Assembly: GCA_963743305.1 (NCBI GenBank)
Contig: CAVUPH010000019.1
Span: forward strand, 39,478-103,477
Source of the DNA: an uncultured delta proteobacterium
Lineage (GTDB): Bacteria; Desulfobacterota; RBG-13-43-22
DNA: 64,000 nt
Reading direction: 5' to 3'
The notes beneath the pieces are model-generated. The model was given only the letters and a program-made list of their open reading frames with translations, was not told the DNA's origin and did no database searches. Of the stretch, positions 9,373-57,215 are shown piece after piece (within the stretch, counting starts at the first letter, position 1; the number at the start of each line of letters is the position of its first letter). The position numbers were made by a program, and so were the translations under genes.

Positions 9373-10660
9373 ATGACCCAGTTGGATTCAGCTCGCCGTG
9401 GGGATCTTACTTCTGAAATGAAGACGGTGGCCGCCCGGGAAGGGGTGGACCCTGAAAAACTGATGGAGGGGTTGGCCCAGGGGACCATAGTCCTTCCGGC
9501 CAACACCCTCAAGAAAAAATCCCGGCCGGTGGGTATTGGGCGGGGGCTGACGATCAAGGTCAACGCCAACATCGGGACCTCCTCGGATCATATTGATCTG
9601 GAAGAAGAGTTGACCAAGTTAAGGATTTGTGTGGAGGCCCAGGCCGATACGGTCATGGACCTGAGCACCGGCGGGGACCTGAAGGCTATCTTGAAGGCTA
9701 TTCTCCAGTCACTCTCCCCTGCCGGTAGGGACGGTGCCTATTTACCAGGCCGTGGTGGAAACGGTCAGTGCCCTGGGCGGAATCATCCATTTAACCGCCG
9801 ATAAGATTTTTGAAGTGATCGAAGCCCAGGCCCGGGAAGGCGTGGACTTCGTCACCGTCCACTGCGGGATGACATTAAGTTCGCTGGAGCGTTTGAAAAG
9901 GCAGGGGCGGATCACGGATATCGTCAGCCGGGGCGGGGCCTTTTTGACCACCTGGATGGTCTATCACGGCCGGGAAAATCCCCTTTACGAACAATATCCC
10001 CGGTTGCTGGAAATCGCCCGGAAATACGACCTGACCCTGAGCCTGGGCGATGCCCTGCGTCCCGGTTGTTTGGCCGATGCCACCGACCGGGCTCAGGTGG
10101 AAGAGCTGATCCTTTTGGGGGAATTGCGAAACCAGGCCCTGGAGGCCGGGGTCCAGGTCATGATCGAGGGTCCGGGGCATGTGCCTCTGAACCAGGTGGA
10201 AACTAACATCCTGCTTCAAAAACGGTTATGCCAGGGGGCCCCGTTTTATGTCCTGGGACCTCTAGTGACCGATATCGCCGCCGGTCACGATCATATAGCC
10301 TGTGCCATCGGCGGGGCCCTGGCCGGTATGGCCGGCGCCGATTTTTTATGTTACGTCACGCCTGCGGAGCATTTGAAACTTCCGGACCCGGAAGATGTTC
10401 GGGAAGGAATCATGGCGGCCCGTATCGCCGCCCATGCGGCCGATCTGGCCCGGGGGAATCCCCGGTCTTGGGAACGGGATCGCCAGATGGCCTTGGCCCG
10501 CAAGGCCCTGAATTGGGAAAAACAAATGGAATTATGTCTGGACCCGGTGAAGGCCAGGAAATACCGCCAGGAAAATCCGCCCCAAGAGTCCGAGGTCTGC
10601 ACCATGTGCGGCGAGTTTTGCGCCATTAAGCTGGTCCGTGATTATTTGAAACGGCCGTGA
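9373..10660 (+). CDS. thiC: Phosphomethylpyrimidine synthase ThiC, +1 frameshift near 9709
   Basis: [20 protein letters not shown] in the first frame; [38 protein letters not shown] in the second. Confidence 0.92.
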
Positions 10661-13152: not shown

Positions 13153-15222
13153 ATGACCGTTCTCCATCCGGCCGCGGAGCGTTACCTGAACATCCCCGGC
13201 AGCCTGATCGCCTGGGTCCTGCTGATCGTGGCCTTAATACTGTTCTCTTTTTCAATGTACCGGCGCCTCTTTTTGCTCCGCTCCGGGCAGCCGGACCCCC
13301 GCTGGGGCAACTGGAAGGAACGAGCCCGGGGATTGCTTGTTTTTGGAATTCTCCAAAAAAGACAGCCCCGGTATTTCTGGTCCGGGGTGATCCACTTTCT
13401 TATTTTTTGGGGGTTTATGGTCCTCGGGCTTCGGTCGCTGGATCTGATCGTGCAAGGCTTGGGAGGCGGGACCGCCCTGCCTTTTTTTAAAAGCGGATTA
13501 GGATCCTTTTACAGCAGCCTCAAGGATTTGTTCGAACTGACCGTCCTGGGCGCCTGTATTTGGGCTATCTTTCGTCGGGCGGTGCTCCGGCCTGCCCGGT
13601 ACGAGCTGGAGAACGGCCGAGGGCCTGGCTGGGAGGCTTACCTGGTCCTGTCCCTGATTGGTTTCCTGATGCTTACGGATATGTTTTTTGAAGGGGGCAC
13701 GCTCCTTTTGTCCCCCTCCGCTCCGGGCTGGCGTCCGTCGGCCGGCCTAGCCGCCTCGGTTTTGTCCGCCCTGGATGAAACCGAGATCAAAAACGTTTCC
13801 CTTCTCGCTTACTGGGCCCATTATTTGGCCTTCTTTATTTTTTTAAATTTTCTCCCCCTGGCCAAGCACTTCCATATTCTTACGGCCCTGCCCAATATCT
13901 TTCTGCGCAAGCTCAAAAAGGGGTCCCTCAAGCCGGCCCGCTGGGGGATGGAGAACTTGGAAGAAATGGAAAACCTGGGCGTTGGTCGTCTCGAGGATTT
14001 TACCTGGAAGCACCTCCTGGATTTATTTACCTGCACCGAATGCGGACGCTGCTCGGACCAATGCCCGGCCAAGGCGGTAGGGCGTCCCCTTTCGCCCAAG
14101 ATGATCACCCTCAAGCTCCGGGATTACGCTTACCGGAAAGTCCCCGTGTTTTCCCTCGGCCGCTCGACATCCGCTACAGAGCCAGCAGAGGATCGGAAGG
14201 AAAAAGAAGACTCCGAAGGCGCCCTGATCGGGGAGGTGATCACCTTCGCTGAAATCTGGTCCTGTACCACTTGTGGGGCCTGCGAAGAAGAGTGTCCGGT
14301 CTTTATCGAATACATCGATAAAATGATTGATATGCGGCGCCACCTCATTGAAACCGCCCAAAATCCCAAGACCTTTAATTCGATTCTGACTCATGTGGAA
14401 AAGACCGGCAATCCCTTCGGCAAACCACCTAAAAAGCGGGCCGATTGGATCAAGGAGATCGCGGATGTTCCGGTCAAGGTCCTGAAAGAAGGGGATGAGA
14501 CGGACGTTCTTTATTTTGTGGACAGCTATGCCTCTTACGATCCCCGGGTGCAGGCCGTAGCCCAGGCCGTCGTTCGAGGATTGAGTCTGGCCGAGGTGGA
14601 CTTCGGGATCCTGGGCGCGCGGGAGAAGGACTCGGGCCATCAGGTCCGCCGCCTGGGTGAAGAAGGGCTTTTTCAGTTGCTCCGGGAGGAGAACCTGGAA
14701 ATCCTTCAATCTTGCCGGTTCAAACAAATAGTCACCACGGATCCCCATGCCTTCAATACGCTAAAAAATGATTATCCGGGGAACCTGCCGGTGGGGCATT
14801 ATACCCTGTTTTTTCGGGATTTGCTGGCTTCCGGCCGGTTAAAGCCGAAAAAAATAATCGACGGGCAACCGCTTTACACGTATCATGACCCCTGTTACCT
14901 GGGTCGGCACAATGAGATTTATGAAGCCCCCCGGGAAATCCTCAACCGCCTTCCGGGGTTGAAGTGGGTGGAGATGACGCGTTGCCGGGACCGCAGCTTT
15001 TGCTGCGGGGGCGGGGACGTCAATCTCTGGCACGAGATCGAAGGGGAAACGATGCGCCCGGCGGCCAGGCGCCTGGAGATGGCCCTGGAAGCGGGTGTCG
15101 GGGGGATTGTTACGGCCTGCCCCTTCTGTTTATTGAACCTGGAGGATGCGGTCAAGACCGCGGGCCTGGAAGATGAAATGAAGGTGGTTGACCTGATGGA
15201 ATTGTTGGTGTCGACCCTGTAG
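13153..15222 (+). CDS. Membrane-bound Fe-S oxidoreductase (DUF224/FadF, ETF:menaquinone oxidoreductase-like)
   Basis: TM domain with His residues (IHFLIFWGF, WAHY, KHFHI), CTECGRCSDQCP, CTTCGACEEECP, CCG domains (HDPCYLGR, CCGGG, ACPFC); upstream of etfBA. Confidence 0.9.
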   Translation: MTVLHPAAERYLNIPGSLIAWVLLIVALILFSFSMYRRLFLLRSGQPDPRWGNWKERARGLLVFGILQKRQPRYFWSGVIHFLIFWGFMVLGLRSLDLIVQGLGGGTALPFFKSGLGSFYSSLKDLFELTVLGACIWAIFRRAVLRPARYELENGRGPGWEAYLVLSLIGFLMLTDMFFEGGTLLLSPSAPGWRPSAGLAASVLSALDETEIKNVSLLAYWAHYLAFFIFLNFLPLAKHFHILTALPNIFLRKLKKGSLKPARWGMENLEEMENLGVGRLEDFTWKHLLDLFTCTECGRCSDQCPAKAVGRPLSPKMITLKLRDYAYRKVPVFSLGRSTSATEPAEDRKEKEDSEGALIGEVITFAEIWSCTTCGACEEECPVFIEYIDKMIDMRRHLIETAQNPKTFNSILTHVEKTGNPFGKPPKKRADWIKEIADVPVKVLKEGDETDVLYFVDSYASYDPRVQAVAQAVVRGLSLAEVDFGILGAREKDSGHQVRRLGEEGLFQLLREENLEILQSCRFKQIVTTDPHAFNTLKNDYPGNLPVGHYTLFFRDLLASGRLKPKKIIDGQPLYTYHDPCYLGRHNEIYEAPREILNRLPGLKWVEMTRCRDRSFCCGGGDVNLWHEIEGETMRPAARRLEMALEAGVGGIVTACPFCLLNLEDAVKTAGLEDEMKVVDLMELLVSTL

Positions 15223-15505
15223 ATTTTCTTGGTTGTTCGCTTTTGGGCGGGTACCCAGCATAGTGGGTATGGCTGCCGGGTCTCAGCAAAAGGGTCTTCC
15301 CTATTGCTTTTTAGGTTTTAACCCTGTCCCCGTGTTTTCAAATCTTCCCGGAGTCAGGGCCATCCTGGGAGCCGTCAAAAGACTCGGATTACGGGCCTGC
15401 ATCAAATAAAATTAACAGCTTCAGCCCGGATTCGAAGTCTGGAGTACTTTTGGAAAACCCTTTTGCTGAGACCCGGCAGCCACGAGGCCCGGTTTCAAAC
15501 TAGGC
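15220..15505 (+). mobile_element. IR-bounded ~280-bp non-coding element, copy 2 (family A)
   Basis: 30-bp IRs at 15271-15300 and 15452-15481 (1 mismatch); core aligns to 2633-2782. Confidence 0.8.
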
Positions 15506-15637
15506 CTTCCCGCCCCCGGGAACGTCCCGAAGGATGAAATTGACTGGGAGGCAATAGACTAACTAATGGATATAAATAATTAATAATCAATTGTTAATAA
15601 TTAGTTATTAATGAATGTCTAGGCAGGAGGATACCCT

Positions 15638-16417
15638 TTGAATATTATTGTTTGTGTAAAACGGGTCCCTTTCACCCAGGAGGTGGACCTGGAAATCGAG
15701 TCCGGTAAAAAAGAGGTGGACCGGGAATCCCTGGCTTACGTCATCAATGACTGGGACCACTATGCCATTGAAGAGGCCGTTTATCTGAAAGAGCAGGGGG
15801 AGGGAACGGTCACGGCCATTACCATCGGACCGGAGGAGGATGAGGAGGTCCTCCGGCGGTGTCTGGCCATGGGGGCCGATCAGGCCCGGCGCATCGATCC
15901 CGGGGAGCGAACCCTGGACGGCGGCGGAACGGCCCGGGTGTTGGCCCGGGTCATAGCCGCTATTCCCTTTGACCTGATTTTATGCGGTGTCCAGGCGGAA
16001 GACGACAACCAGGGGATGGTGGGAATCATGCTGGCCGAACACCTCGGTCTGGCCCACGCGGCGGTGGTCACCGGCATCGAAACCCGGGGAGAAGAGTTGA
16101 TCGTTCAATGCGAGTTGGAAGGCGGGATGGACGAGCGTTCGAAGATAAAGCTCCCGGCCCTTTTGACCGTTCAGACCGGCATCAACGAGCCCCGTTATGT
16201 TTCCATCATGGGGATCAAAAAGGCGACCAAGAAACCACTGGAGGTGATCCCCCTGGCCGACCTGAATTTTTCTTCGGACGACCTGGCTCCGCAAGTCCTT
16301 ATGGATGAAGTTTTTCTCCCGCCGGAGACCGGCGGCGCCGAAATGATCAGCGGCGACCCGATGCAGGCGGCGGAAAAGATCCTGCAAATACTAAAAGAAA
16401 AGGGGGTGAGGGCCTGA
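15638..16417 (+). CDS. etfB: Electron transfer flavoprotein beta subunit
   Basis: NIIVCVKRVP, AIEEA, LAMGAD, NEPRYVS; TTG start with AGGAGG RBS. Confidence 0.95.
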   Translation: MNIIVCVKRVPFTQEVDLEIESGKKEVDRESLAYVINDWDHYAIEEAVYLKEQGEGTVTAITIGPEEDEEVLRRCLAMGADQARRIDPGERTLDGGGTARVLARVIAAIPFDLILCGVQAEDDNQGMVGIMLAEHLGLAHAAVVTGIETRGEELIVQCELEGGMDERSKIKLPALLTVQTGINEPRYVSIMGIKKATKKPLEVIPLADLNFSSDDLAPQVLMDEVFLPPETGGAEMISGDPMQAAEKILQILKEKGVRA

Positions 16418-17388
16418 TGGAAGGAATCTTCGTAGTGGTGGAGCACCGCCAGGGGAGGGTTCGAGATATCTCCCTGGAGATGCTCTCCAAGGCCGGCGAA
16501 TTGAAGAATGACCTGGGCGGCGATCTAACGGCCGTCCTGCTGGGTTGGGAAACCGGGCCGCTGATTGAAGCCTTAAAGGGGCGGGCCGACAGGATCCTGG
16601 TGATCGAAGACGAGCGGGTAAAATTTTTTGAGGCCGAGGTTTACAAAACGATCCTCCGGCAACTGATTCAGGAATTTCAACCGGCCCTGACCCTGATCGG
16701 CCAGACCTCCTGGGGACTGGACCTGGCCCCCTGCCTGGCGGTCCAAATGGGTTTCCCCTTGGTCACGGATTGCCTGGATATTAAGATCGAGGCCGGAAAG
16801 CCTACGGCCCTGCGCCAGATATACGGTGGTAAAGTATTTGCCCGGGTCTCTATGAAGGAATCCACCGGGTATCTGGCCACCATTCGGCCGGGCGCTTTTT
16901 CACCTGACCCGGCAGGAGACCGTCCGACCGAAGTGGTCAAAATAGAATTCCCGCCGGGACTGCCGGAAAGTAAAAGGCAGATCCTGGAATTGGTCGAGTC
17001 GGAAGCCGGGGAGGTGGATATTGCCCAGGCCGAATTTCTGGTTTCAATAGGTCGGGGTGTGGGCGAAGAAGAAAACCTGGCCCAGGTCCGGGAACTGGCC
17101 CGGTCGCTGGGGGCCGTGCTGTCCTGTTCCCGGCCGATTGTGGACAAGAAGTGGTTGCCCAAGTACCACCAGGTTGGCACCTCGGGCAAATCGGTCAAGC
17201 CCAAGGTCTACCTGGCGTTGGGCATCAGCGGGGCCTTTCAGCACCTGGCCGGGATCGGCGGCGCCGGTACCGTAATCGCCGTCAACAAGGACCCCAAGGC
17301 CCCGATTTTTCGGGTAGCCCAGTACGGCGTGGCCCAGGATATTTTTAAGATCATCCCGGCATTGAGGGAACAAATAAGCAGGAATTAG
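16417..17388 (+). CDS. etfA: Electron transfer flavoprotein alpha subunit
   Basis: GRGV, SRPIVD, QVGTSGKSV, GISGAFQH, AVNKDPKAPIF. Confidence 0.95.
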   Translation: MEGIFVVVEHRQGRVRDISLEMLSKAGELKNDLGGDLTAVLLGWETGPLIEALKGRADRILVIEDERVKFFEAEVYKTILRQLIQEFQPALTLIGQTSWGLDLAPCLAVQMGFPLVTDCLDIKIEAGKPTALRQIYGGKVFARVSMKESTGYLATIRPGAFSPDPAGDRPTEVVKIEFPPGLPESKRQILELVESEAGEVDIAQAEFLVSIGRGVGEEENLAQVRELARSLGAVLSCSRPIVDKKWLPKYHQVGTSGKSVKPKVYLALGISGAFQHLAGIGGAGTVIAVNKDPKAPIFRVAQYGVAQDIFKIIPALREQISRN

Positions 17389-17503
17389 ATTCTTGTATCC
17401 ATTCTTCTGAGAATTTGTCTTTAGCAAAGGATGTAAGAATTTAATATAAAAAAATTGCAGATTTTTTTGGCTAATATTCACCGCCACGACGCAAAGGAAC
17501 CCC

Positions 17504-18649
17504 ATGGATTTTACTTTGAGCAAAGAACAACAGGATATCATCAAGGCCGCCCGGGAGTTCGCCCGCAAGGAGTTTCCGGAAAGGGCCCTGGAGTTTGACC
17601 GTACTGAAACCTTTGATTTGACCCTTTGGAAAAAGGCCTGTGAACTGGGTTTCGTGGGCGTTTTCATCGACGAAAAGTATGACGGGGCCGGCTACGGCTT
17701 TCTGGAGCACTGCCTGATTACCGAGGAATTCTGGGCCGTGGACCCGGGGATCGGACAGGCCATCCTATCCGCCACCTTCGGGGCCGAACTGCTACTATTG
17801 TTTGCCCAGGAGGACCAGAAGGAATGGATCCTTCCCGAATTGGTTTCCGGAGAGGCCCTGCTGGCTACGGCCATCACCGAACCGGATGCCGGATCGGATG
17901 TGACCGGGGCTTCCACTGCCGCGGTGCAACAGGGGGACCAGTGGGTGATCAACGGCTCCAAAATGTTCATCACCAACGGAGACCTGGCCAAGTATGCGAT
18001 CGTCTATGCCCTGACCAATCCGGACCATCCCTCCCGGCATTCCCGTCACAGCTTTATCATCGTGCCCACCGATCAGCCCGGTTTCCAGGCCAACAAAATC
18101 CACGGGAAGCTGGGCATCCGGGCCTCGGATACGGCGGAATTGGTTTTTTGCGACGTCAAGGCGCCCCTTTCCAATCTGATAGGGGAAGAGGGGGAGGGGT
18201 TTCATCAATTGATGGCCTTCTTCAACCGGACCCGCCTGCACATCTGCGCCCAGGGTGTGGGGTTGGCCCGGGCGGCCCTGGAGGAGAGTATCCGCTACAC
18301 CAAGAAGCGCCACCAGTATGGGGTTCCACTGGCCTCCTTCCAGGCCACCCAATTCAAGCTGGCCGAAATGGCCACCCGGATCCGGGCCGCCCGCAATATG
18401 TATTACGAGGCCGCCTGGCTGATGGATAACGGGGTGGTAGATCACGCCCTGATCGCCATGGCTAAGTGGTTTTCCGGGGAGATGGCCGTGCGCGCCGCCG
18501 ACGAAGCCCTGCAGATGCACGGGGGCTATGGCTATATCGACGAATACAAAGTACAGCGCCTCTACCGGGATTGCAAGATCCTGGAGATCTACGAAGGCAC
18601 CAAGGAGATTGAAAAATCAATCGTGGCCCAGTCCATTTTGGGAATGTAG
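17504..18649 (+). CDS. Acyl-CoA dehydrogenase
   Basis: AITEPDAGSD, NGSKMFITNG, KLGIRASDT, QMHGGYGY, IYEGT. Confidence 0.95.
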   Translation: MDFTLSKEQQDIIKAAREFARKEFPERALEFDRTETFDLTLWKKACELGFVGVFIDEKYDGAGYGFLEHCLITEEFWAVDPGIGQAILSATFGAELLLLFAQEDQKEWILPELVSGEALLATAITEPDAGSDVTGASTAAVQQGDQWVINGSKMFITNGDLAKYAIVYALTNPDHPSRHSRHSFIIVPTDQPGFQANKIHGKLGIRASDTAELVFCDVKAPLSNLIGEEGEGFHQLMAFFNRTRLHICAQGVGLARAALEESIRYTKKRHQYGVPLASFQATQFKLAEMATRIRAARNMYYEAAWLMDNGVVDHALIAMAKWFSGEMAVRAADEALQMHGGYGYIDEYKVQRLYRDCKILEIYEGTKEIEKSIVAQSILGM

Positions 18650-19460: not shown

Positions 19461-20354
19461 ATGAACATATCAAGGCGTGATTTTCTGAAATATTGCGGTA
19501 TATCGGCGGCGGCCGTGGGATTGTCAACCAGCGAACTCGGCTTGCTGGAAAAGGCCTTGGCGAGTCCTACCGGACCATCGGTCATCTGGCTGCAGGGCAG
19601 CGGTTGTACCGGATGTTCCGAATCCTTCCTCAATCGCATAGCCACCGACGGTCCGCAGACGGCTGCAAATGTGCTGGTCGAGGCCATCAACCTGGTTTAT
19701 CACCCGAACCTCATGGCCCTGGCGGGTCAGGATGCTGTGGCCCAAGCCGAGGCGGCCTACAATAAAGGAGGATACCTGCTGGCGGTGGAGGGCGGGATTC
19801 CGACCGCCTTCGGCGGAAGGGCCTGTTATGCCTGGACCTATAATGAGCAGGAAGTCACCTTCGAGTCGGCAGTGCAGACCCTGGCCGCCAAGGCGGCCGG
19901 AATCCTGTGCATCGGGACCTGCGCTGCCTGGGGAGGAATCCCGGCAGCACCGCCGAACCCCACCGGTGTCATGGGGGTCAAGGCGCTGACCGGCAAGGAC
20001 ACCATCAACATCCCCGGCTGTCCCACCCATCCCGATTGGATCGTCTGGGCGGTGGTTCAACTGCTATTGGGTAATTCGATTGCTCTGGACAGCTTCGGCC
20101 GGCCCACCCAATTTTTCGGCTCCACGGTGCACGATCTCTGCCCTCGAAATGGAAGCACCAAGGCCACGACCATCGGGGTGGACAATAATTGTCTGATGGA
20201 TTTGGGCTGCCGGGGTCCAGTGACCATGGCCAATTGTCCTCAACAGAAATGGAACAACCAGGTCAACTGGTGTGTCGATGCCAATGCGCCCTGCATCGGC
20301 TGTACCGAGCCCGGGTTTCCGGGCACGGATCCCTTTTACGCCCCCGGTGTGTAA
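19461..20354 (+). CDS. [NiFe] hydrogenase small subunit with Tat signal
   Basis: SRRDFLK twin-arginine signal, CTGCSES, GTCAAWGG, PGCP, HDLC..CLMDLGC, WCVDANAPCIGC. Confidence 0.95.
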   Translation: MNISRRDFLKYCGISAAAVGLSTSELGLLEKALASPTGPSVIWLQGSGCTGCSESFLNRIATDGPQTAANVLVEAINLVYHPNLMALAGQDAVAQAEAAYNKGGYLLAVEGGIPTAFGGRACYAWTYNEQEVTFESAVQTLAAKAAGILCIGTCAAWGGIPAAPPNPTGVMGVKALTGKDTINIPGCPTHPDWIVWAVVQLLLGNSIALDSFGRPTQFFGSTVHDLCPRNGSTKATTIGVDNNCLMDLGCRGPVTMANCPQQKWNNQVNWCVDANAPCIGCTEPGFPGTDPFYAPGV

Positions 20355-20375
20355 TCTATTTAAGGAGGTAGCTCA

Positions 20376-21815
20376 ATGTCGACCAAGATATTTATAGATC
20401 CCGTGACCCGTCTGGAAGGACATCTCAAGATTGCGGTCACCGTGAATGAAGTGCAAGGCCAACAACAGGTCGTCGATGCCCGGGCCACGGGGACCCTGTT
20501 CCGTGGTTTTGAGCAGTTGCTGGTCGGCCGCGACCCAAGGGATGCCCAGCATCTTACCCAGCGGATCTGCGGCGTCTGCCCCGTGCCCCACGGAATGGCC
20601 TCGGTCCTGGCCCAGGACGCCGCTTTTCAGGTGACGGCCCCCACGAATGCCCGGATCATGCGCAACCTGGTCCTGGGCGCCAATTTTGTGCAGTCCCACA
20701 TCCTTCATTTCTATCATCTGACCGCCCTGGATTACCTCGACGGGCCGGCCATGCCGCCCTGGCAGCCCTCCTGGAAAGCGGACAAACGCATCACCGGCGC
20801 GACGGCCGCCAATTTAGTAAACCATTATGTAACCGCTATCGACATGACCCGCAAGGCCCATGAGATGGGCGCCCTTTTCGGGGGGCGGATGCCGGACCCG
20901 GCCGCTTATATCTCCGGGGGGTTTACGACGACGCCCCGGGCCGACCGGATCTCCAAGTACAAGGCCTACCTCAATGAGTTGATTCCCTTTATCCAAAACG
21001 TCTATCTGTCGGACGTGGCCGCCCTGAGATCGGTCTATTCGGATTATAACACCATCGGAAGGGGATACGGAAACCTGCTGTCCTTTGGGGTTTTCGACCT
21101 GGATTCAGAGGGCGAAAGTAAGCTCCTCCGAAGGGGTCGATCAGCGAGCGGGAGCACCTCCGTGAATTCGATCGATCTGACCCGGATCACCGAATCGGTC
21201 CGCTATTCCTGGTATGAGGATGCCACCACCAATCTGAATCCGGCTGGCGGTCAAACCCTGCCCCATTGTCCCAAAGCCAAGGCCTATTCCTGGCTCAAGG
21301 CGCCGCGTTACGACGGCGCTCCTTATGAGGCCGGTCCGTTGGCCCGCATGTGGGTCAACGGGGATTATCGGCAGGGGATTTCCGTGATGGATCGACACCA
21401 GGCCCGGGCCCTGGAAACTTTAAAAATAGCCCAGGCCCTCCAAACCTGGGTGAACCAGCTTCGGCCGAGTGGAGCGGTCTATACCAAACCTACGATTCCC
21501 TCCACCACGGCCTCGGGTATAGGACTCACCGAGGCCCCCCGCGGCGCCCTGGGACATTGGCTCCAAACCGCTTCGGGCAAAGTTTCGAGCTATCAGATCA
21601 TCACCCCCACTTGCTGGAACGCCTCACCCCGAGACGATGCCAGCCAGATGGGTCCCATCGAAAAGGCCCTGATGGACACGCCGGTCAAAGACCTGAAAGA
21701 GCCTGTGGAGGTCCTGAGGGTCATTCATTCCTTCGACCCCTGTCTTTCCTGCGCGGTCCATGTCTCCCGACCCAATGAAAAGGCGACGGTCCAGATCATC
21801 TCCGGGCAGCGGTAG
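20376..21815 (+). CDS. [NiFe] hydrogenase large subunit (group 1a-like, Cys not Sec)
   Basis: TRLEGH, L1 QRICGVCPVPH, EAPRG, L2 FDPCLSCAVH plus cleavable C-terminal tail. Confidence 0.95.
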   Translation: MSTKIFIDPVTRLEGHLKIAVTVNEVQGQQQVVDARATGTLFRGFEQLLVGRDPRDAQHLTQRICGVCPVPHGMASVLAQDAAFQVTAPTNARIMRNLVLGANFVQSHILHFYHLTALDYLDGPAMPPWQPSWKADKRITGATAANLVNHYVTAIDMTRKAHEMGALFGGRMPDPAAYISGGFTTTPRADRISKYKAYLNELIPFIQNVYLSDVAALRSVYSDYNTIGRGYGNLLSFGVFDLDSEGESKLLRRGRSASGSTSVNSIDLTRITESVRYSWYEDATTNLNPAGGQTLPHCPKAKAYSWLKAPRYDGAPYEAGPLARMWVNGDYRQGISVMDRHQARALETLKIAQALQTWVNQLRPSGAVYTKPTIPSTTASGIGLTEAPRGALGHWLQTASGKVSSYQIITPTCWNASPRDDASQMGPIEKALMDTPVKDLKEPVEVLRVIHSFDPCLSCAVHVSRPNEKATVQIISGQR

Positions 21816-21821
21816 GTCGGG

Positions 21822-22431
21822 ATGGAAGGTCAGCAGGAAACCAAAATGAATACGCTGCTGGAAGAACCAGGGATAAAGGCCGAAAGGGGACCGAGGATCC
21901 TGATTGCCGGCATGGGCAATATCCTGCTTAAGGACGACGGCGTCGGAGTTCACGCCGTGAAGCGGTTTCCGCCGGCTGAAAGCGGAGAATATCGGGCCGT
22001 CGAGGTAGGGTGTGCGGTGTTTGACGCCCTGCACCTGTTTCGATTGGGCGGAGAGGATCCTGCTCATCGATGCCATGCAGGCCGGTGGGCTGCCCGGGAC
22101 CGTGTACCGGGTCGACAGCCTGAAGGACATGGATATGGGAACCGCGCCGGTCTCGCTCCATGAGTTTTCCGTGATCCAGGCCCTGGAGATGATTCAAAAA
22201 GATCCGATGCCGGCCGTATCGATCATCGGCGTCGAGCCGGAGATCATCGACTACGGCCTGGAGCTTTCGGCATCGGTGGAAGCATCCCTCCCCCTGGTCT
22301 GGGAGACCGGGCAGGAAATTGTCCGGAAATGGATAACGGAATTTGAAAATCGAGGTGCCATCGAGATATCCGAGGGATTCCTCGGAAAAAAAACGATTTC
22401 GGCGGACCAGACCAGCTTCAGCCGCCTGTAA
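21822..22431 (+). CDS. Hydrogenase maturation protease, +1 frameshift near 22039
   Basis: GMGNILLKDDGVGV, then LIDAM and SLHE after removing one T in GTTTCG. Confidence 0.88.
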
Positions 22432-22459
22432 AAATAACAACCCAGGCAAGGAGATGAAA

Positions 22460-23963
22460 ATGAAGTCCAAGATTTCTATGATTTTAATTTTAATAGGTTT
22501 AGCGTTGGGAGGATTCAGCAGCGCTTTTGGATCAAGTAGCTTTACGACCTCCTTTAATAATGCGAATGGGACCTCCTATGGGTGCAACCTTTGCCATATC
22601 AGTACCTCAGCCCCGAACTACACTCGGAATCAATTCGGGTTAGACTGGGCCAATGCATCCATAGGAAATCGTTCCTATACTATTACTACAGCGCTTGCGA
22701 ATCGGGATTCCGATGGCGACGGCTACTTTAATGGCGATGAAATCCTGGCTAAAACAAACCCTGGAGATGCTGCCAGCTTTCCAACCGGGGGGACGGCTGA
22801 CACCACCCTGCCGGTGGTTTCGGTTTTCACCATCCCGTCCAGTTCTTCATCCCTGGTCGTGCCGATTAGCGCCATTGCCGCCACGGACAATGTGGGGGTG
22901 ACCGGGTACCTGGTCAACGAAAGCCCGACCAAACCGGCAGCGGGGAACTGGCCCGCTGCGGCTCCCACGAGCTATACCTTTTCCAGCGCCGGGGCCAAGA
23001 CGCTCTACGCCTGGGCCCGGGATGCGGCCGGGAATGTCTCCAACGTCCTGAGTTCGGGAAGGAGCGTGAGCATCACCTTGGCGGATGCGACCTTGCCGGT
23101 GGTTTCGGCTTTCATCGTCCCGGCCACTTCTGCTACCCTGGTCGTACCGATTACCACCTTCACCGCCACGGATAACGTGGGGGTAACCGGGTACCTGGTC
23201 AACGAAAGCGCGACCAAACCGGCAGCGGGGAACTGGCCCGCTACGGCTCCCACGAGCTACACCTTTGCCGGCACCGGGGCCAAGACGCTCTATGCCTGGG
23301 CCAGGGATGCCGCAGGAAACGTCTCCAATAGTCTGAGCGGGACCGTGACCATCGACACCGGCAGCGCGATCGACGTCGAATCTCCCGAGGTAATGGAATT
23401 CACCCTCCCCCTGACCAGTACTTCGCTCACTGTGCCGATCCTGGCCTTCCGGGCCATCGATAACATCGATGCCGTCGCCTACCTGATCACCACCACCCCC
23501 ACGGAGCCTGCCGCCAACGCCCAGGGCTGGAGAGCCACTCCCCCCCGAGCTATACCTTTACTTCCGGGGGCGCGAAGACACTTTACGGCTGGGCCAAGGA
23601 CGCGGCCGGGAACATCTCGGAAAGTATCTGGGACAACGTGGTCATAACGAGTTCCGTCGATACGGCACGGCCGGCGATCACGTCCTTCAGGATTCCCAGT
23701 ACCTCCAGTTCTTTAACTGTGCCGATTCAGCGATTCATCGCCACGGACAACATCGCCGTGACCGGTTATCTGGTAACCACCACCGCGACCAGACCCGCTT
23801 CGTCCGACTCCAGGTGGAAGGCCACACCCCCACCAGCTATACCTTTAGTTCCACGGGAAGAAAAAGGCTTTACCCCTGGGCTAAAGACGCGGCCGGAAAT
23901 GTTTCGACCTACCGGTATTCAACGGTGAATGTTTCAGGCAACGATCACGGAGGAGATGATTAA
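22460..23963 (+). CDS. Secreted monoheme c-type cytochrome with a DxDGDG Ca-binding motif and four Ig/FN3-like repeats (two -1 shifts near 23545 and 23830)
   Basis: Sec signal, CNLCH, DSDGDGYFNGDEI..TNPGD; repeats DTTxPVV..ATDNVGVTGYLV..YTF..KTLYAWARDAAGNVS; ends SGNDHGGDD-stop at 23963. Confidence 0.8.
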
Positions 23964-24052
23964 ATCTTATCCCGAAAGAGAAAACCATTCACCCCGCTGA
24001 GCGGATCTATGAAGTATCTTCCTCTTTGATAGAGGGGAAGGTACTCGGGGGG

Positions 24053-24098
24053 AGGCGGCAGAGTAGTCCTAAGGTGGGCTTCTCTGTCGCCTTTTTTT
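24053..24098 (+). terminator. Intrinsic terminator closing the hydrogenase-cytochrome operon
   Basis: AGGCGGCAGAG...CTCTGTCGCCT followed by a T-tract. Confidence 0.7.
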
Positions 24099-24256: not shown

Positions 24257-24691
24257 ATGAAACCTGATTCAGGAATTGGAAATCCACTGCGAATTCCCGC
24301 CGTGGAATTGAGCTTCGAATTTTTCAGGGCCTCGGGACCGGGCGGCCAGAATGTCAACAAAGTGGCCACCGCCGTCCGATTGCGGTTTGATGTCCTGACG
24401 GTCCCCCTCCCTGACCGAGCCCCAACGAGCGCGGCTCATCCGGTTGGCCGGCCACAAGTTGACCGAGGGGGGGAACTCCTGATCGAGTCTCGACGCTTCC
24501 GCACCCAGGAGGCCAACCGGAAGGCGGCCATTGAACGGTTGGAGCAACTGGTTTCCCAGGCTTCGGTTGTGCCCAGGGTCCGGCGGCCCACCCGACCTAC
24601 CCTGGCCTCCAAGAAAAAACGCCTGGAGGGCAAACGCACCCGTTCGGGATTGAAAGATCGGCGTCGACCGGTTTCGGATACGGAGGAATAA
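24257..24691 (+). CDS. arfB: Alternative ribosome rescue factor ArfB (peptidyl-tRNA hydrolase); internal compensating frameshifts
   Basis: RASGPGGQNVNKV, RTQEANR, basic tail RRPTRPT..KKRLEGKR; the native SPSL..RLIRLAGHKLTE segment lies in another frame at about 24398-24472. Confidence 0.88.
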   Translation: MKPDSGIGNPLRIPAVELSFEFFRASGPGGQNVNKVATAVRLRFDVLTVPLPDRAPTSAAHPVGRPQVDRGGELLIESRRFRTQEANRKAAIERLEQLVSQASVVPRVRRPTRPTLASKKKRLEGKRTRSGLKDRRRPVSDTEE

Positions 24692-24710: not shown

Positions 24711-26798
24711 ATGAAGAAGAGGCAGGGGGCATTGCTCATGATGGTTCTGATGTGGGGGCTGTTCGGTGCATCCGGTCCCGCCTGGGCCCAGAGAACAGAT
24801 GGAGGACAAACCCTTTCCCCCAAAGGAAAGGAGCGGGAGGTCAAGAGTCGGATCTATGTGAACCCCGCCGCCAGCCAGCGGCTATATCGGAAAGTGTCGG
24901 TGCTGCCCTTCCAGGCTGCGGTGGATGTGGTGGGTGCCAGCATATCCGACCTGTTTTCCACGGAATTGTTGACTACCCATAAATACCAATTGGTGGATCG
25001 CACCCAGTCGGAGCAGATTTTACGGGAAAAAGATCCAGGCCATAAAATCGTTCCAGAAAATGCCGCGGCCGCAAAAATGGGACAATTATTGGGTGTTCAA
25101 GGGGTGATCATCGGAACCGTTCCGGAATACGGGGTCAAGATTTCGGGAACGACCGAATTAGTGGCTGTAGGAATCAATGCCCGGATGATCGATGTTTCCG
25201 ACGGTTCCGTCGTCTGGAGTATAGCGGACATAGCCGTTTCCGATCGATCCCTGACCCTTTCCGCTCTGGCCCACCAAACGGTCCGTAAGATGGTGACCCA
25301 GCTCTTCCAGGAGATGATCCGAGCCGGCGACCTGCAAACCGCTGCTCTTCCGGTTCCCCGGGTCCTGGCCTCTGAAGGCCAGCTTCGGGGGACGATGATC
25401 GAAATCCAATCCGCTTCCCTTAACACCGTGGCCTCCTATAAAATCCTGAGGAGCCGCAGCGGGGAAGGCCCTTTTCAGGAGGCGGGGTCCATCAAAAACC
25501 CCGGTTCTCGAACGGTTCGCTATGAAGACCGGGATCTCCCGGACGGAGAGACCTATTATTACCAGGTCTTGGCGGTGTCGCCTCTGGGGTTAACCAGTCT
25601 GCCCGGACCGTCGGTCAAGATTACCACGGCCGGACCTCCGGGGACTGTTGCCGGTCTGACCGCCCGGTCCGGGTTGATTCGCCAAGTGGTCCTCGCCTGG
25701 CAACCGCTGACGGATCCTAAGGTTCAGGGCTACCGAGTGTTCCGCCAAGCGGGGAAAGGACCCTGGGAAAAGATCCGGACCCTGGAAGGACGGGAACAAT
25801 CCACTGTTACCGATCAGGGACTGGGGGATGCCACCTCATATGCTTACCAGGTGGTAACCGCCTATAAGGACGGCCAGGAATCCCCGCCCTCGCCGGCGGT
25901 CAGAGCCACCACCAAAGGGCCTCCCTCCAAGGTTCAAAAACTGGAGGCCGTGAGCAGGCAGGCCCGAAAAGTCCCCTTGACCTGGACGCCGGTCAATGAA
26001 CCGGAAGTCAAAGGCTATGCCCTCTTTCGATCATCCAAAAGGACCGGGCCCTTCGAAAAGATCGCCTTTGTGGAAGGACGGGAGACCAGCCGGTTTGTGG
26101 ATGGGGACAAAAGGGGTTTTTTCGAGATAGCGACCCCCCTTAACGACGAAACCCGTTATTACTACAAGGTGCAGGCCGTGAACATTGTGGACGTCCACGG
26201 CGAGGATTCCCCCCTGGACAACGCCGTCACCAAACCGGTTCCGGAAGCGGTTGTGGATTTGCAGGCCGATCAATTGGAGGTCAAACAGGTGTCTCTGAAA
26301 TGGAAGGCCAGCAAGGAGGCGGATATCGCTAAATATGAAGTCTACCGCGGTCGGGACAGTCAGTCGGTGAACACCCGGGTGTTGGAGGTTCCGGCCTCAG
26401 CCACCCAGGCGGTGGACAAAGGGTTGGATGACGGCTCCAGGTATTACTACCGCGTTCGGGCGGTGGACAAAGACGGGTTGGAGGGGACTTTTTCCAATTC
26501 GTCCTCCTCGGTCACCAAGCCGGTCCCGGTTAAACCCCAGGGGCTCAAGGTTGTCCTGGAAGGAAGCCGGGTCCGATTGACCTGGCAGCCCAACCCGGAA
26601 AAAGATATAAACGGATATCGGATTTTTCAGAAAAGTTTCTTTTTGTTTTGGGAAAAAGTGGGCGAGGCGCCGGGAACCGAATTTCTTTTTCAAGGGGAAT
26701 TGAAAAAGGGGAAAACCTTGACTTTTCGCATAACGGCCGTGGACCGGACCCAGCTCGAGGGGGAGCCTTCCGAAGAGGTGGGCCTGGTAGTCCCTTAA
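24711..26798 (+). CDS. Exported CsgG/FlgO-like domain plus five fibronectin type III repeats
   Basis: Signal peptide AWA; VLPF..QLVDR..GQLLGV..VIIGTV..ARMIDV..GSVVWS; FN3 W..GY.V.R..D..L..G..Y.Y.V.AV repeats. Confidence 0.8.
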   Translation: MKKRQGALLMMVLMWGLFGASGPAWAQRTDGGQTLSPKGKEREVKSRIYVNPAASQRLYRKVSVLPFQAAVDVVGASISDLFSTELLTTHKYQLVDRTQSEQILREKDPGHKIVPENAAAAKMGQLLGVQGVIIGTVPEYGVKISGTTELVAVGINARMIDVSDGSVVWSIADIAVSDRSLTLSALAHQTVRKMVTQLFQEMIRAGDLQTAALPVPRVLASEGQLRGTMIEIQSASLNTVASYKILRSRSGEGPFQEAGSIKNPGSRTVRYEDRDLPDGETYYYQVLAVSPLGLTSLPGPSVKITTAGPPGTVAGLTARSGLIRQVVLAWQPLTDPKVQGYRVFRQAGKGPWEKIRTLEGREQSTVTDQGLGDATSYAYQVVTAYKDGQESPPSPAVRATTKGPPSKVQKLEAVSRQARKVPLTWTPVNEPEVKGYALFRSSKRTGPFEKIAFVEGRETSRFVDGDKRGFFEIATPLNDETRYYYKVQAVNIVDVHGEDSPLDNAVTKPVPEAVVDLQADQLEVKQVSLKWKASKEADIAKYEVYRGRDSQSVNTRVLEVPASATQAVDKGLDDGSRYYYRVRAVDKDGLEGTFSNSSSSVTKPVPVKPQGLKVVLEGSRVRLTWQPNPEKDINGYRIFQKSFFLFWEKVGEAPGTEFLFQGELKKGKTLTFRITAVDRTQLEGEPSEEVGLVVP

Positions 26799-56371: not shown

Positions 56372-56968
56372 CTATTGCGGAATGGCCGCTTGATCGTCAT
56401 CGAAATCCCCTTGTTCGGCCCCTTTATGGCAGGCAAGACAGTTGGAAAAGGAGCCGACGGATTTCCGTTTAAAAACCTCGGGAGAAATCCCTTGGTGTTT
56501 CTTCCGAATGTAGGGTAGCTCGGTGATCCGGTCCGGAATTGATCCTCCCAGATTGCGAAGGATCTTTCCTCCCGTTTCAGTCCCGGACCGGTTCGCGGAG
56601 TTCTCAGCGAGGTATTTCCTGATTTCCTCCCTGGTGGGGTCATCCAGTGAAATTGATTCACCGAAGTGGTTGTCCAGACGGGTTAATATCTTATTCCAGG
56701 AAGCGGCCGGGAGCAGATCCGAGGGATAGGTCAAGTGGCAACTTCCGCAGTTGTTTTTATAATTCTCGTTGCCTGGCCGCTGCCCGTATTTCTTGAAATC
56801 CAGTTCCCGGTCTCGGTCATGGCCCTTTCCCCCGGATTGAGCGAATCTACCCCGGTGATCACCTTCGTCTCGTTCGTGCCTCTCCAAGAAGGAAAAACCG
56901 GTCAATCCAATACCCGCAATCAGCAAAATAATGACAGCCAACCAGAAATATTTCATTCGCTTTTTCAT
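56372..56968 (-). CDS. Diheme cytochrome c (DHC family)
   Basis: CGSCH..YP..LLPAASW..L.NHFG, RITE...RKKH, NCLACH..AEQGDF; N-terminal membrane anchor/signal. Confidence 0.9.
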   Translation of the reverse strand: MKKRMKYFWLAVIILLIAGIGLTGFSFLERHERDEGDHRGRFAQSGGKGHDRDRELDFKKYGQRPGNENYKNNCGSCHLTYPSDLLPAASWNKILTRLDNHFGESISLDDPTREEIRKYLAENSANRSGTETGGKILRNLGGSIPDRITELPYIRKKHQGISPEVFKRKSVGSFSNCLACHKGAEQGDFDDDQAAIPQ

Positions 56969-57215
56969 AAACATCACCTCTTCGGCCAAAAGAGCGCACC
57001 TCTGGCCTTCTCTCATTCCTGGTTTTAGAAATATCTTCCAAAAGGTCCAATACACCGCCTAAAGGATGAAAAATATTTCATCGACCTTTGATGGCTAACA
57101 AGTTTAAGGGGGGGGAAAGCCCCGCGAAGGGAGACAACCCGGCCCCGGGCACAGGACTCCAAACCACCTCCTGCGAAAAATCCGCTGAGGCTTTCAGGAG
57201 ATAGCTGGTTCTAGA

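Follow-up and report, generated by a model that had tools for sequence, protein, structure and literature searches.

How does a soluble hydrogenase hand on its electrons, and can its partner be read from its own operon? The question is raised by a locus in an uncultured delta proteobacterium (Desulfobacterota, RBG-13-43-22; assembly GCA_963743305.1), of which a stretch of 64,000 nucleotides (nt) of contig CAVUPH010000019.1 was analysed, here called the window. At positions 19461-24098 of the window the genes for the small and the large subunit of a [NiFe] hydrogenase are followed by a maturation protease gene and by a fourth gene (gene 4), the predicted product of which carries one CxxCH motif on a stalk of four immunoglobulin (Ig)-like repeats. 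This four-gene unit is real, and the hydrogenase itself is ordinary. We read the operon, with a probability of about 0.5, as encoding a soluble periplasmic uptake-type [NiFe] hydrogenase, its protease and a dedicated exported redox partner or tether.

All four genes lie on the forward strand in the order small subunit, large subunit, protease and gene 4 (Table 1). The two subunit genes are separated by 21 nt, and 22 nt separate the protease stop from the start of gene 4; in the related loci L011, L012 and L013 the protease stop is overlapped by the gene-4 start. The only strong terminator of the unit is located 3' of gene 4, where the initial annotation, made from the sequence alone, had placed one, and its hairpin with U7 is confirmed by RNA folding and shuffling. 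A consensus scan for promoters and terminators did not rise above shuffled sequences (5 versus 3.6 and 10 versus 6.7) and missed this terminator because the hairpin loop is long. The list of open reading frames (ORFs) and the domain scans bear out that the unit contains no gene for a cytochrome b or a multihaem cytochrome. Genetic coupling of gene 4 to the hydrogenase genes is supported, because the 22-nt gap, the start overlaps in relatives and the single terminator are joined by the recurrence of the pairing and by fusions of the repeat to small subunits, both described below.

The small subunit carries the twin-arginine translocation (Tat) motif RRDFLK (TIGR01409 24.9 bits, cut-off 16.7) and matches TIGR00391 with 223.8 bits (cut-off 179.5). 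It has no C-terminal membrane anchor, since NiFe_hyd_SSU_C extends to residue 293 of 297. Both features had been recognized in the initial annotation, as had the two Ni-binding motifs of the large subunit, N-terminal RxCGxCxxxH (QRICGVCPVPH) and C-terminal DPCxxCxxH (DPCLSCAVH), and its Ser/Thr-rich loops, all of which are present in the translation. The best solved relatives of the small subunit are [NiFeSe] small subunits (2wpn_A, E 2.3e-67). Those of the large subunit are the periplasmic [NiFeSe] enzymes of Desulfovibrio vulgaris and Desulfomicrobium baculatum, from E 2.9e-127 (5jsu_B) to 4.5e-124, whereas standard Desulfovibrio [NiFe] large subunits give 4.1e-94, more than 30 orders of magnitude weaker. 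The position of selenocysteine in the C-terminal Ni motif is occupied by a Cys codon, and the ORF contains no in-frame TGA. The large subunit scores 594.4 bits with NF033181 (cut-off 600) and stays below the cut-off of the [NiFeSe] family NF045518 (534.5 bits against 780). Because the closest structures are [NiFeSe] enzymes, the selenocysteine position is Cys and NF033181 falls just under its cut-off, the hydrogenase is most likely a Cys-type member of a [NiFeSe]-like lineage, group 1a-like, soluble and exported by Tat. In the available part of the HydDB description (PMC5037454), group 1a is labelled 'periplasmic' and includes the [NiFeSe] variants.

Large-subunit relatives were surveyed in 80 loci, the best of 177 relatives (54-93% identity), with 6 kb on either side. 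ORFs with at least three CxxCH motifs occur in only 7 of these 80 loci, so this type of hydrogenase seldom encodes a cytochrome in cis. The missing cytochrome b or c3 gene, which had been put forward as notable, is therefore normal for the type, with a cytochrome c3 encoded elsewhere in the genome.

Gene 4, when its two frameshifts (see below) are read through, would encode an exported protein of about 502 amino acids (aa). Its intact homologues P0004, P0008 and P0006 (500-506 aa, 65-70% identity) have the identical architecture and match it residue for residue. A predicted signal peptide of the general secretory (Sec) type, seen as an N-terminal hydrophobic helix in the structure models, precedes a module of about 85 aa with the CxxCH motif and a Ca-binding-type loop, which is followed by four repeats and a short acidic tail. 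The single CxxCH, the DSDGDG loop and the four repeats had all been noted in the initial annotation, and are found in the translation with a repeat length of about 95 aa. The module scores below the cut-offs of Pfam Temptin_C (PF24784; 24.3 bits, E 4.6e-5, cut-off 27) and TSP3_bac (19.4 bits, cut-off 25), and it matches NF041762 (GEGP dihaem) over the first haem region only (76 residues, E 2e-11, 43.7 bits against 300). In an alignment of 32 diverse modules with a mean column identity of 31%, only C, C and H of the haem motif, D-x-DGDG-xx-N-xx-E and one proline are invariant. The AlphaFold model of the module is helical, with a predicted local distance difference test (pLDDT) score of 84.4. 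In fold searches this model matched nothing in the PDB with Foldseek, and VIA-align gave no match with a Z of at least 2 among 48,161 chains, which does not by itself make the fold a new one. The closest entries in the ESM Atlas are clusters of stand-alone Temptin_C proteins 109-142 aa long. The repeats match Big_13 with 24.6 bits, under the cut-off of 27, and are assigned to the Ig-like fold by their model, in which they form beta-sandwiches (pLDDT >90) with BIg domains of SiiE as best Foldseek match (E 1.6e-6, probability 1.00). The gene-4 proteins of hydrogenase-linked relatives end in longer Asp/Glu runs than the short acidic tail of the window.

Table 1. Positions of the features of the hydrogenase unit in the window.
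Feature	Position	Strand	Evidence or remark
[NiFe] hydrogenase small subunit, 297 aa	19461..20354	+	Pfam NiFe_hyd_SSU_C 85.2 bits, Oxidored_q6 76.7 bits
[NiFe] hydrogenase large subunit, 479 aa	20376..21815	+	Pfam NiFeSe_Hases (PF00374) 418 bits
HyaD/HybD-type maturation protease	21822..22431	+	split by +1 frameshift, extra G at 22037
Gene 4, predicted exported protein with CxxCH module and four Ig-like repeats, about 502 aa if read through	22454..23963	+	three-frame translation, intact homologues
Sec-type signal peptide (predicted)	22454..22534	+	ends AFG, then SSS; read from the translation
Temptin_C-like module	22535..22798	+	CxxCH at 22583-22597, then Ca-binding-type loop DSDGDG at 22706-22723
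Ig-like repeat 1	22799..23083	+	protein alignment; beta-sandwich with pLDDT >90
Ig-like repeat 2	23084..23371	+	Tandem Repeats Finder (TRF) 22805-23328, period 285 nt, 87% matches
Ig-like repeat 3	23372..23658	+	interrupted by -1 frameshift at C7 run 23540-23546
Ig-like repeat 4 and short acidic tail	23659..23963	+	interrupted by -1 frameshift at C5 run 23827-23831
Intrinsic terminator	24047..24098	+	long hairpin, then U7; RNA fold -37.4 kcal/mol, z -6.2, 0/200 shuffles as good

The pairing of a module gene with a hydrogenase recurs. In the large-subunit survey a module gene is found near the hydrogenase in 7 of the 80 loci (L011, L012, L013, L015, L017, L074 and L043). The only isolate genome among the 80, Geobacter hydrogenophilus (L060 / L269, 58% identity), has no module gene nearby. 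A second survey, anchored on the module, covered at least 79 loci from many phyla and the 7 kb around each, the known linked loci not being among those returned. It added a Verrucomicrobia metagenome-assembled genome (L091:3048-13573) in which two tandem module genes (about 1142 and 904 aa) lie directly upstream of small subunit, large subunit and protease. Their products combine the module with 6-8 Ig domains of the ASH/HYDIN/Cep192 type and poly-Asp tails, a beta-sandwich repeat different from that of the window. In the large subunit of L091, moreover, the loop corresponding to a Ser/Thr-rich one of the window contains a poly-Asp insertion, and the large subunit of L074 has an acidic insertion in another loop. 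A third survey, anchored on the repeat, covered 67 loci, seven of which contain the module, among them four already known as hydrogenase-linked.

Within the same family 4 of 20 genomes contain the module, which directly follows large subunit and protease in G001, G003 and G007; the locus of G018 is too short to tell, and G002, of the same genus and 97% complete, gave no module match. A profile search of the window's own genome found two module genes in 4.9 Mb, one of them beside the hydrogenase, which makes chance adjacency unlikely, as a matter of judgement and not of a formal test. In a quick maximum-likelihood tree of 81 large subunits, rooted on the organism's own 577-aa hydrogenase and leaving out L017 and L041 with their split large subunits, the linked state on eight rows takes five changes, at least four of them forced by well-supported branches, and none of 500 shuffles gave so low a number; the row of L091 came from the module-anchored survey and inflates the count of changes by one, which tells against the strength of this result. 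Recurrence of the pairing at four or more separate positions of the tree is thus supported by the sequences compared.

The repeat of gene 4 is also found on hydrogenases. In L223 (=L247) a short linker joins the small subunit to a C-terminal Ig-like repeat that is the same as in the window. When the C-terminal region of L223 (residues 280-428) was used as query, the 120 proteins listed included 15 with small-subunit Pfam domains from several sources, 13 covering at least 83% of the query region; some of the fused proteins are already named 'hydrogenase small subunit' in their source databases. The extension of P0150 is 55-58% identical to repeats 1 and 2 of the window (E 2e-32). Multihaem cytochromes with the same repeat are among the listed matches as well, including P0174 of the isolate Desulfatirhabdium butyrativorans. 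Six of the 74 loci obtained for P0150 have the fused form (L244, L245, L246, L247, L262 and L266), and in four of the six CxxCH-bearing ORFs or fragments sharing the repeat lie directly upstream: an intact ORF of 734 aa with nine CxxCH motifs in L245, and fragments in L262, L247 and L266. The upstream ORF of L244 carries the repeat and is cut by the contig end; L246 is too short. Some of the Ig-extended small subunits carry an ASH/HYDIN-type Ig domain in addition, and the preceding cytochrome has 8-9 haems.

These fusion loci look like an undescribed operon type. Their hydrogenases (also P0142 and P0150) belong to the same family as that of the window, with 52-56% identity in the small and about 58% in the large subunit, and like the window they combine the same repeat (55-58%) with a gene for a c-type cytochrome in the operon. 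They differ in the place of the repeat, which is carried there by the small subunit and by a cytochrome with 8-9 haems, but in the window by a protein with one CxxCH, the small subunit being bare. As judged from the sequences, the sister clade thus has the Ig-like module on hydrogenase and operon cytochrome alike, and the clade of the window only on the haem-motif protein. The proposal of the initial annotation that the repeat and haem-motif gene is tied to the hydrogenase is upheld by the 7 of 80 loci, the recurrence in the tree, the start overlaps and these fusions.

The comparisons of the CxxCH motif of the gene-4 protein point to haem binding. Haem binding is favoured because C, C and H are invariant, because module proteins elsewhere carry further CxxCH motifs or match cytochrome c families, and because the genome encodes a paralogue with seven CxxCH motifs and cytochrome c assembly genes. 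The invariance of CxxCH spans phyla, including archaea with c-type cytochromes. Further CxxCH motifs are present in 27 of the 88 module ORFs of the module-anchored survey; in a Pfam scan of 66 of these ORFs, 18 passed the Temptin_C cut-off, five matched cytochrome c families and one was fused to a glucose/sorbosone dehydrogenase. The assembly genes match PF01578 with 190.1 and 39.7 bits (cut-off 29.9), so that CxxCH, predicted export and maturation genes in the genome, the marks of a c-type protein, are found together for the gene-4 product. The paralogue is the second module gene of the genome (G000:C6:99052-101437, reverse strand). It encodes a signal peptide, a CxxCH/Ca-loop module with DSDGDT and Ig-like repeats; after a frameshift within a repeat there follows a C-terminal domain with the seven CxxCH motifs, and a similar copy exists in G003 of the same genus (L175).

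The genes for the protease and for gene 4 are broken in the assembled sequence. A protease of the HyaD/HybD type is present as had been stated, but it is split between two frames by the extra base at 22037: the frame 21822-22163 covers positions 1-40 of TIGR00072 and the frame 22012-22431 positions 52-139 (59.4 bits, cut-off 47.45), and no match to the family in one full-length frame was found in the window. The proteases of L013 (211 aa) and L011 (226 aa) are encoded in a single frame. Likewise, the architecture given earlier for a Sec-secreted protein of about 500 aa holds, but the protein is not encoded by one ORF, and two frameshifts had gone unmentioned. The frame starting at 22454 ends at 23647; behind the C7 run the remainder of repeat 3 is read in the -1 frame, and behind the C5 run one more -1 shift is needed for repeat 4 to go on to the stop at 23961-23963, so the product of about 502 aa is obtained only with both frameshifts read through. 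All three sites are 1-nt indels with respect to four relatives (L017, L013, L012 and L011). At 22037 all four have one base fewer. At 23540-23546 the relatives read C6-A-C against C7 in the window, an A being lost, and at 23827-23831 L017 has C6 against C5 in the window, L013 and L011 likewise having one base more. Metagenome contigs of related strains restore two of the sites: at 22037 those of runs X3 and X4 are one base shorter, and behind 23539 those of X1, X3 and X4 have an additional C; the third site is bridged by none of the contigs compared. A search of sequencing runs listed no RNA data set with this DNA, and the best DNA run shared 0.24 of its words; most of the contigs compared came from relatives.

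Hydrogenases of this family are soluble periplasmic enzymes: once the large subunit has been trimmed by the protease, the dimer is exported through Tat by means of the small-subunit signal. Periplasmic is the default location here, since the Tat and Sec signals are found in a bacterium with RND (resistance-nodulation-division) efflux and CsgG-type genes. If gene 4 encodes a dedicated partner, it would be co-expressed with the hydrogenase and its product exported by Sec and furnished with one covalently bound haem at the CxxCH motif. This haem may exchange electrons, in either direction, with the distal Fe-S cluster of the small subunit, and the four Ig-like domains with the acidic tail would fix the haem or the enzyme within the cell envelope or beside other cytochromes. 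A wider proposal, which we regard as possible and put forward tentatively, is that soluble group-1a-like hydrogenases are physically coupled to c-type cytochromes by the Ig-like repeat, which would act as a module dedicated to docking or anchoring, in a tethered, envelope-spanning electron route for H2. The module would sit on small subunit and multihaem cytochrome in one clade and on a one-haem Ca-binding head in the clade of the window, with a different beta-sandwich doing the equal job in Verrucomicrobia. Electrons would flow from H2, or towards it in syntrophy, and the route might extend to the outer membrane or the cell surface; the haem would be five-coordinate or receive its sixth ligand from the partner.

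Several observations weigh against a dedicated partner, and most of them would be accounted for if gene 4, co-transcribed with the hydrogenase genes or just adjacent to them, were a passenger coding for a generic exported envelope or adhesin-like Ig-repeat protein that exchanges no electrons, the hydrogenase using a cytochrome c3 encoded elsewhere. Tetrahaem cytochrome c3 is the textbook acceptor of soluble periplasmic hydrogenases of the Desulfovibrio type, and a class III tetrahaem cytochrome c3 is encoded in the same genome (G000:C6:56417-56689; 65.6 bits, cut-off 22.9). The initial annotation had called for a synteny survey and named general absence of the gene from homologous operons as evidence against its proposal: most related loci, 73 of 80, indeed have no module gene, yet the linkage recurs in several lineages. 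Among the 79 module loci listed, a hydrogenase is found clearly in L091 and as a weak large-subunit-like match in L154, and three of the seven repeat loci with the module have none. Module and repeat are both widespread, shuffled extracellular parts, the module being found mostly away from hydrogenases and on many non-redox architectures; elsewhere they are fused to PASTA, PKD, CHRD and sorting signals. The repeats fold like BIg domains of adhesins, and the small subunit of the window has no C-terminal Ig extension. A sixth haem ligand is also missing, as had been noticed from the sequence: no His or Met is conserved in the 32 modules aligned, and the mature module of the window has neither beyond the His of CxxCH. 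This is unusual for a simple electron carrier, and a five-coordinate haem or a ligand from the partner is therefore argued. A passenger is nevertheless rather unlikely in view of the linkage at four or more tree positions with two unrelated repeat types, the fusion of the same repeat to small subunits and adjoining multihaem cytochromes, the overlap of protease stop and gene-4 start in relatives, and the location here of one of only two module genes of the genome. The dedicated redox partner or tether is also to be weighed against the placement by the initial annotation of hydrogenase and repeat protein at or outside the cell surface, where they would connect H2 oxidation with minerals or a syntrophic partner. 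Surface sorting does occur in the module family (Por_Secre_tail in three and PGF-CTERM in one of the 66 proteins scanned, also SLH and cohesin/dockerin, and PEP-CTERM-like tails in some members). The adhesin-like repeats, the acidic tails kept in hydrogenase-linked members, the 7-CxxCH domain of the organism's own paralogue and the syntroph-type genes for EtfAB, an FeS-oxidoreductase and an acyl-CoA dehydrogenase upstream would fit such a location too. However, the gene-4 protein has a Sec signal only, with no surface or outer-membrane sorting signal in the Pfam and NCBIfam scans, the enzyme has a Tat signal only, the unit encodes no secretion system, and the RND efflux and CsgG-type genes of the window are typical of two-membrane cells. 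With the periplasm as default, we do not follow the earlier placement, and a surface system is quite improbable.

A further doubt concerns the breaks themselves and is independent of these readings. The frameshifts may be real, protease and repeat gene being recent pseudogenes or switched off at C runs, in which case the hydrogenase would remain unmatured and its partner truncated after 2.6 repeats. This, too, would speak against the operon as a working hydrogenase with its partner, and it gains weight from the crowding of five indels in 22.0-24.5 kb, three of them the frameshifts of the unit within 1.8 kb, while rpoB, rpoC and the syntenic flanks (acyl-CoA dehydrogenase, EtfA/B, Yip1) are clean. 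Real decay of this region is conceivable because of that contrast, and among the contigs compared none from a near-identical strain bridges a shift site. We consider it unlikely. The shifted frames of protease and gene 4 are free of stops and of other decay and are 65-96% like their relatives, and two of the shifts collapse an interrupted C run, as is typical of consensus error. Similar indels are found in other genes. The unrelated neighbour arfB (ArfB-like RF-1 domain gene, 24257-24691) differs from L017 and L013 by one additional A at about 24398 and one missing A at about 24469/70; the two compensate, with 24 codons out of frame and the ORF remaining open. The housekeeping gene thiC (9373-10660) is divided between two frames that match positions 1-111 and 119-419 of Pfam ThiC_Rad_SAM; the frame changes at a C run at about 9712-9717. 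The C6 paralogue is split inside a repeat, and the hydrogenase on C26 is split as well. The latter belongs to a second Tat hydrogenase operon (G000:C26:63897-66654), in which the frame of the small subunit runs without a stop into that of the large subunit, itself split near 65880; both irregularities are probably due to additional indel errors. In the near relative L017 the same genes of the unit are broken, but at other sites. Because thiC, arfB, the paralogue and the second hydrogenase carry such indels, the three frameshifts are most likely errors of assembly or consensus, perhaps worsened by strain variation in the repeat region, where relatives have between 3 and 9 repeats. We also considered programmed frameshifting or phase variation at the C runs but rejected both, as the runs of the relatives are interrupted and in frame and unrelated genes show the same kind of indel. 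Both proteins are therefore probably made by the organism, and automated annotation will truncate the genes for protease and gene-4 protein or call them pseudogenes, a miscall if the breaks are, as is most likely, consensus errors.

Among described systems the closest is the HysAB [NiFeSe] hydrogenase of D. vulgaris Hildenborough and Desulfomicrobium baculatum, the best match for both subunits of the window. HysAB likewise has a Tat signal, no membrane anchor, no cytochrome b and a protease gene in the operon; the window differs by Cys in place of selenocysteine and by the extra operon gene for the CxxCH/Ig-repeat protein. Type I tetrahaem cytochrome c3 resembles the proposed gene-4 product as an exported c-type haem protein that takes electrons from the distal cluster. 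The gene-4 protein is unlike it: it has a single CxxCH where c3 has four, lacks a conserved sixth ligand, carries a Ca-loop and a four-domain Ig stalk, and is encoded in the operon. The module resembles both Temptin_C and NF041762, each below cut-off and the latter over the first haem region only; the temptin papers found, as far as their available parts go, concern animals, and no function of a bacterial Temptin_C module was found described in them. Giant adhesins of the SiiE type share the BIg repeat fold (2yn3_A, E 1.6e-6), but the repeats of the window have only about 23% sequence identity to them, a Sec signal in place of type 1 secretion, four domains and a head with a haem motif. The available part of a report on the iron-corroding archaeon Methanococcus maripaludis (PMC6181927) describes an extracellular [NiFe] hydrogenase, which like that of the window has an export signal and no membrane anchor. 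The enzyme of the window differs in being bacterial and periplasmic by default. The methanogen cell has no outer membrane. The analogy to secreted methanogen hydrogenases drawn in the initial annotation does not carry over.

The neighbouring genes add some context. Upstream of the unit, positions 13153-18649 encode a membrane CCG/4Fe-4S oxidoreductase (HdrD-like), EtfB, EtfA and an acyl-CoA dehydrogenase, an arrangement that recalls syntrophic oxidizers of fatty or aromatic acids. A conserved linkage of the EtfAB and acyl-CoA dehydrogenase genes with the hydrogenase was considered and rejected, as no relatives but the two closest show it, and a gap of 3.4 kb intervenes in L013. Downstream, between arfB and the Yip1-domain gene, a protein of 695 aa (24711-26798) combines a CsgG-like domain with fibronectin type III repeats; neither L013 nor L017 has this gene at the corresponding place. 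On the reverse strand, positions 56372-57055 encode a dihaem cytochrome c (Pfam DHC, 136.6 bits).

Electron hand-off from soluble periplasmic hydrogenases is understood mainly for Desulfovibrio, where it proceeds via free cytochrome c3. A literature search found no description of an operon-encoded one-CxxCH/Ca-loop protein on an Ig stalk, of the recurrence of its pairing with hydrogenases with two unrelated beta-sandwich types, or of fusions between hydrogenase small subunits and Ig domains. If our reading is true, H2 metabolism would have a second mode of wiring, through a tethered haem partner encoded in the operon, and an Ig-like module shared by small subunits and cytochromes would likewise count as one. 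This would apply to uncultured anaerobes of sediment and soil, including likely syntrophs, and it would give a first functional context to the widespread bacterial CxxCH/Ca module of the Temptin_C type.

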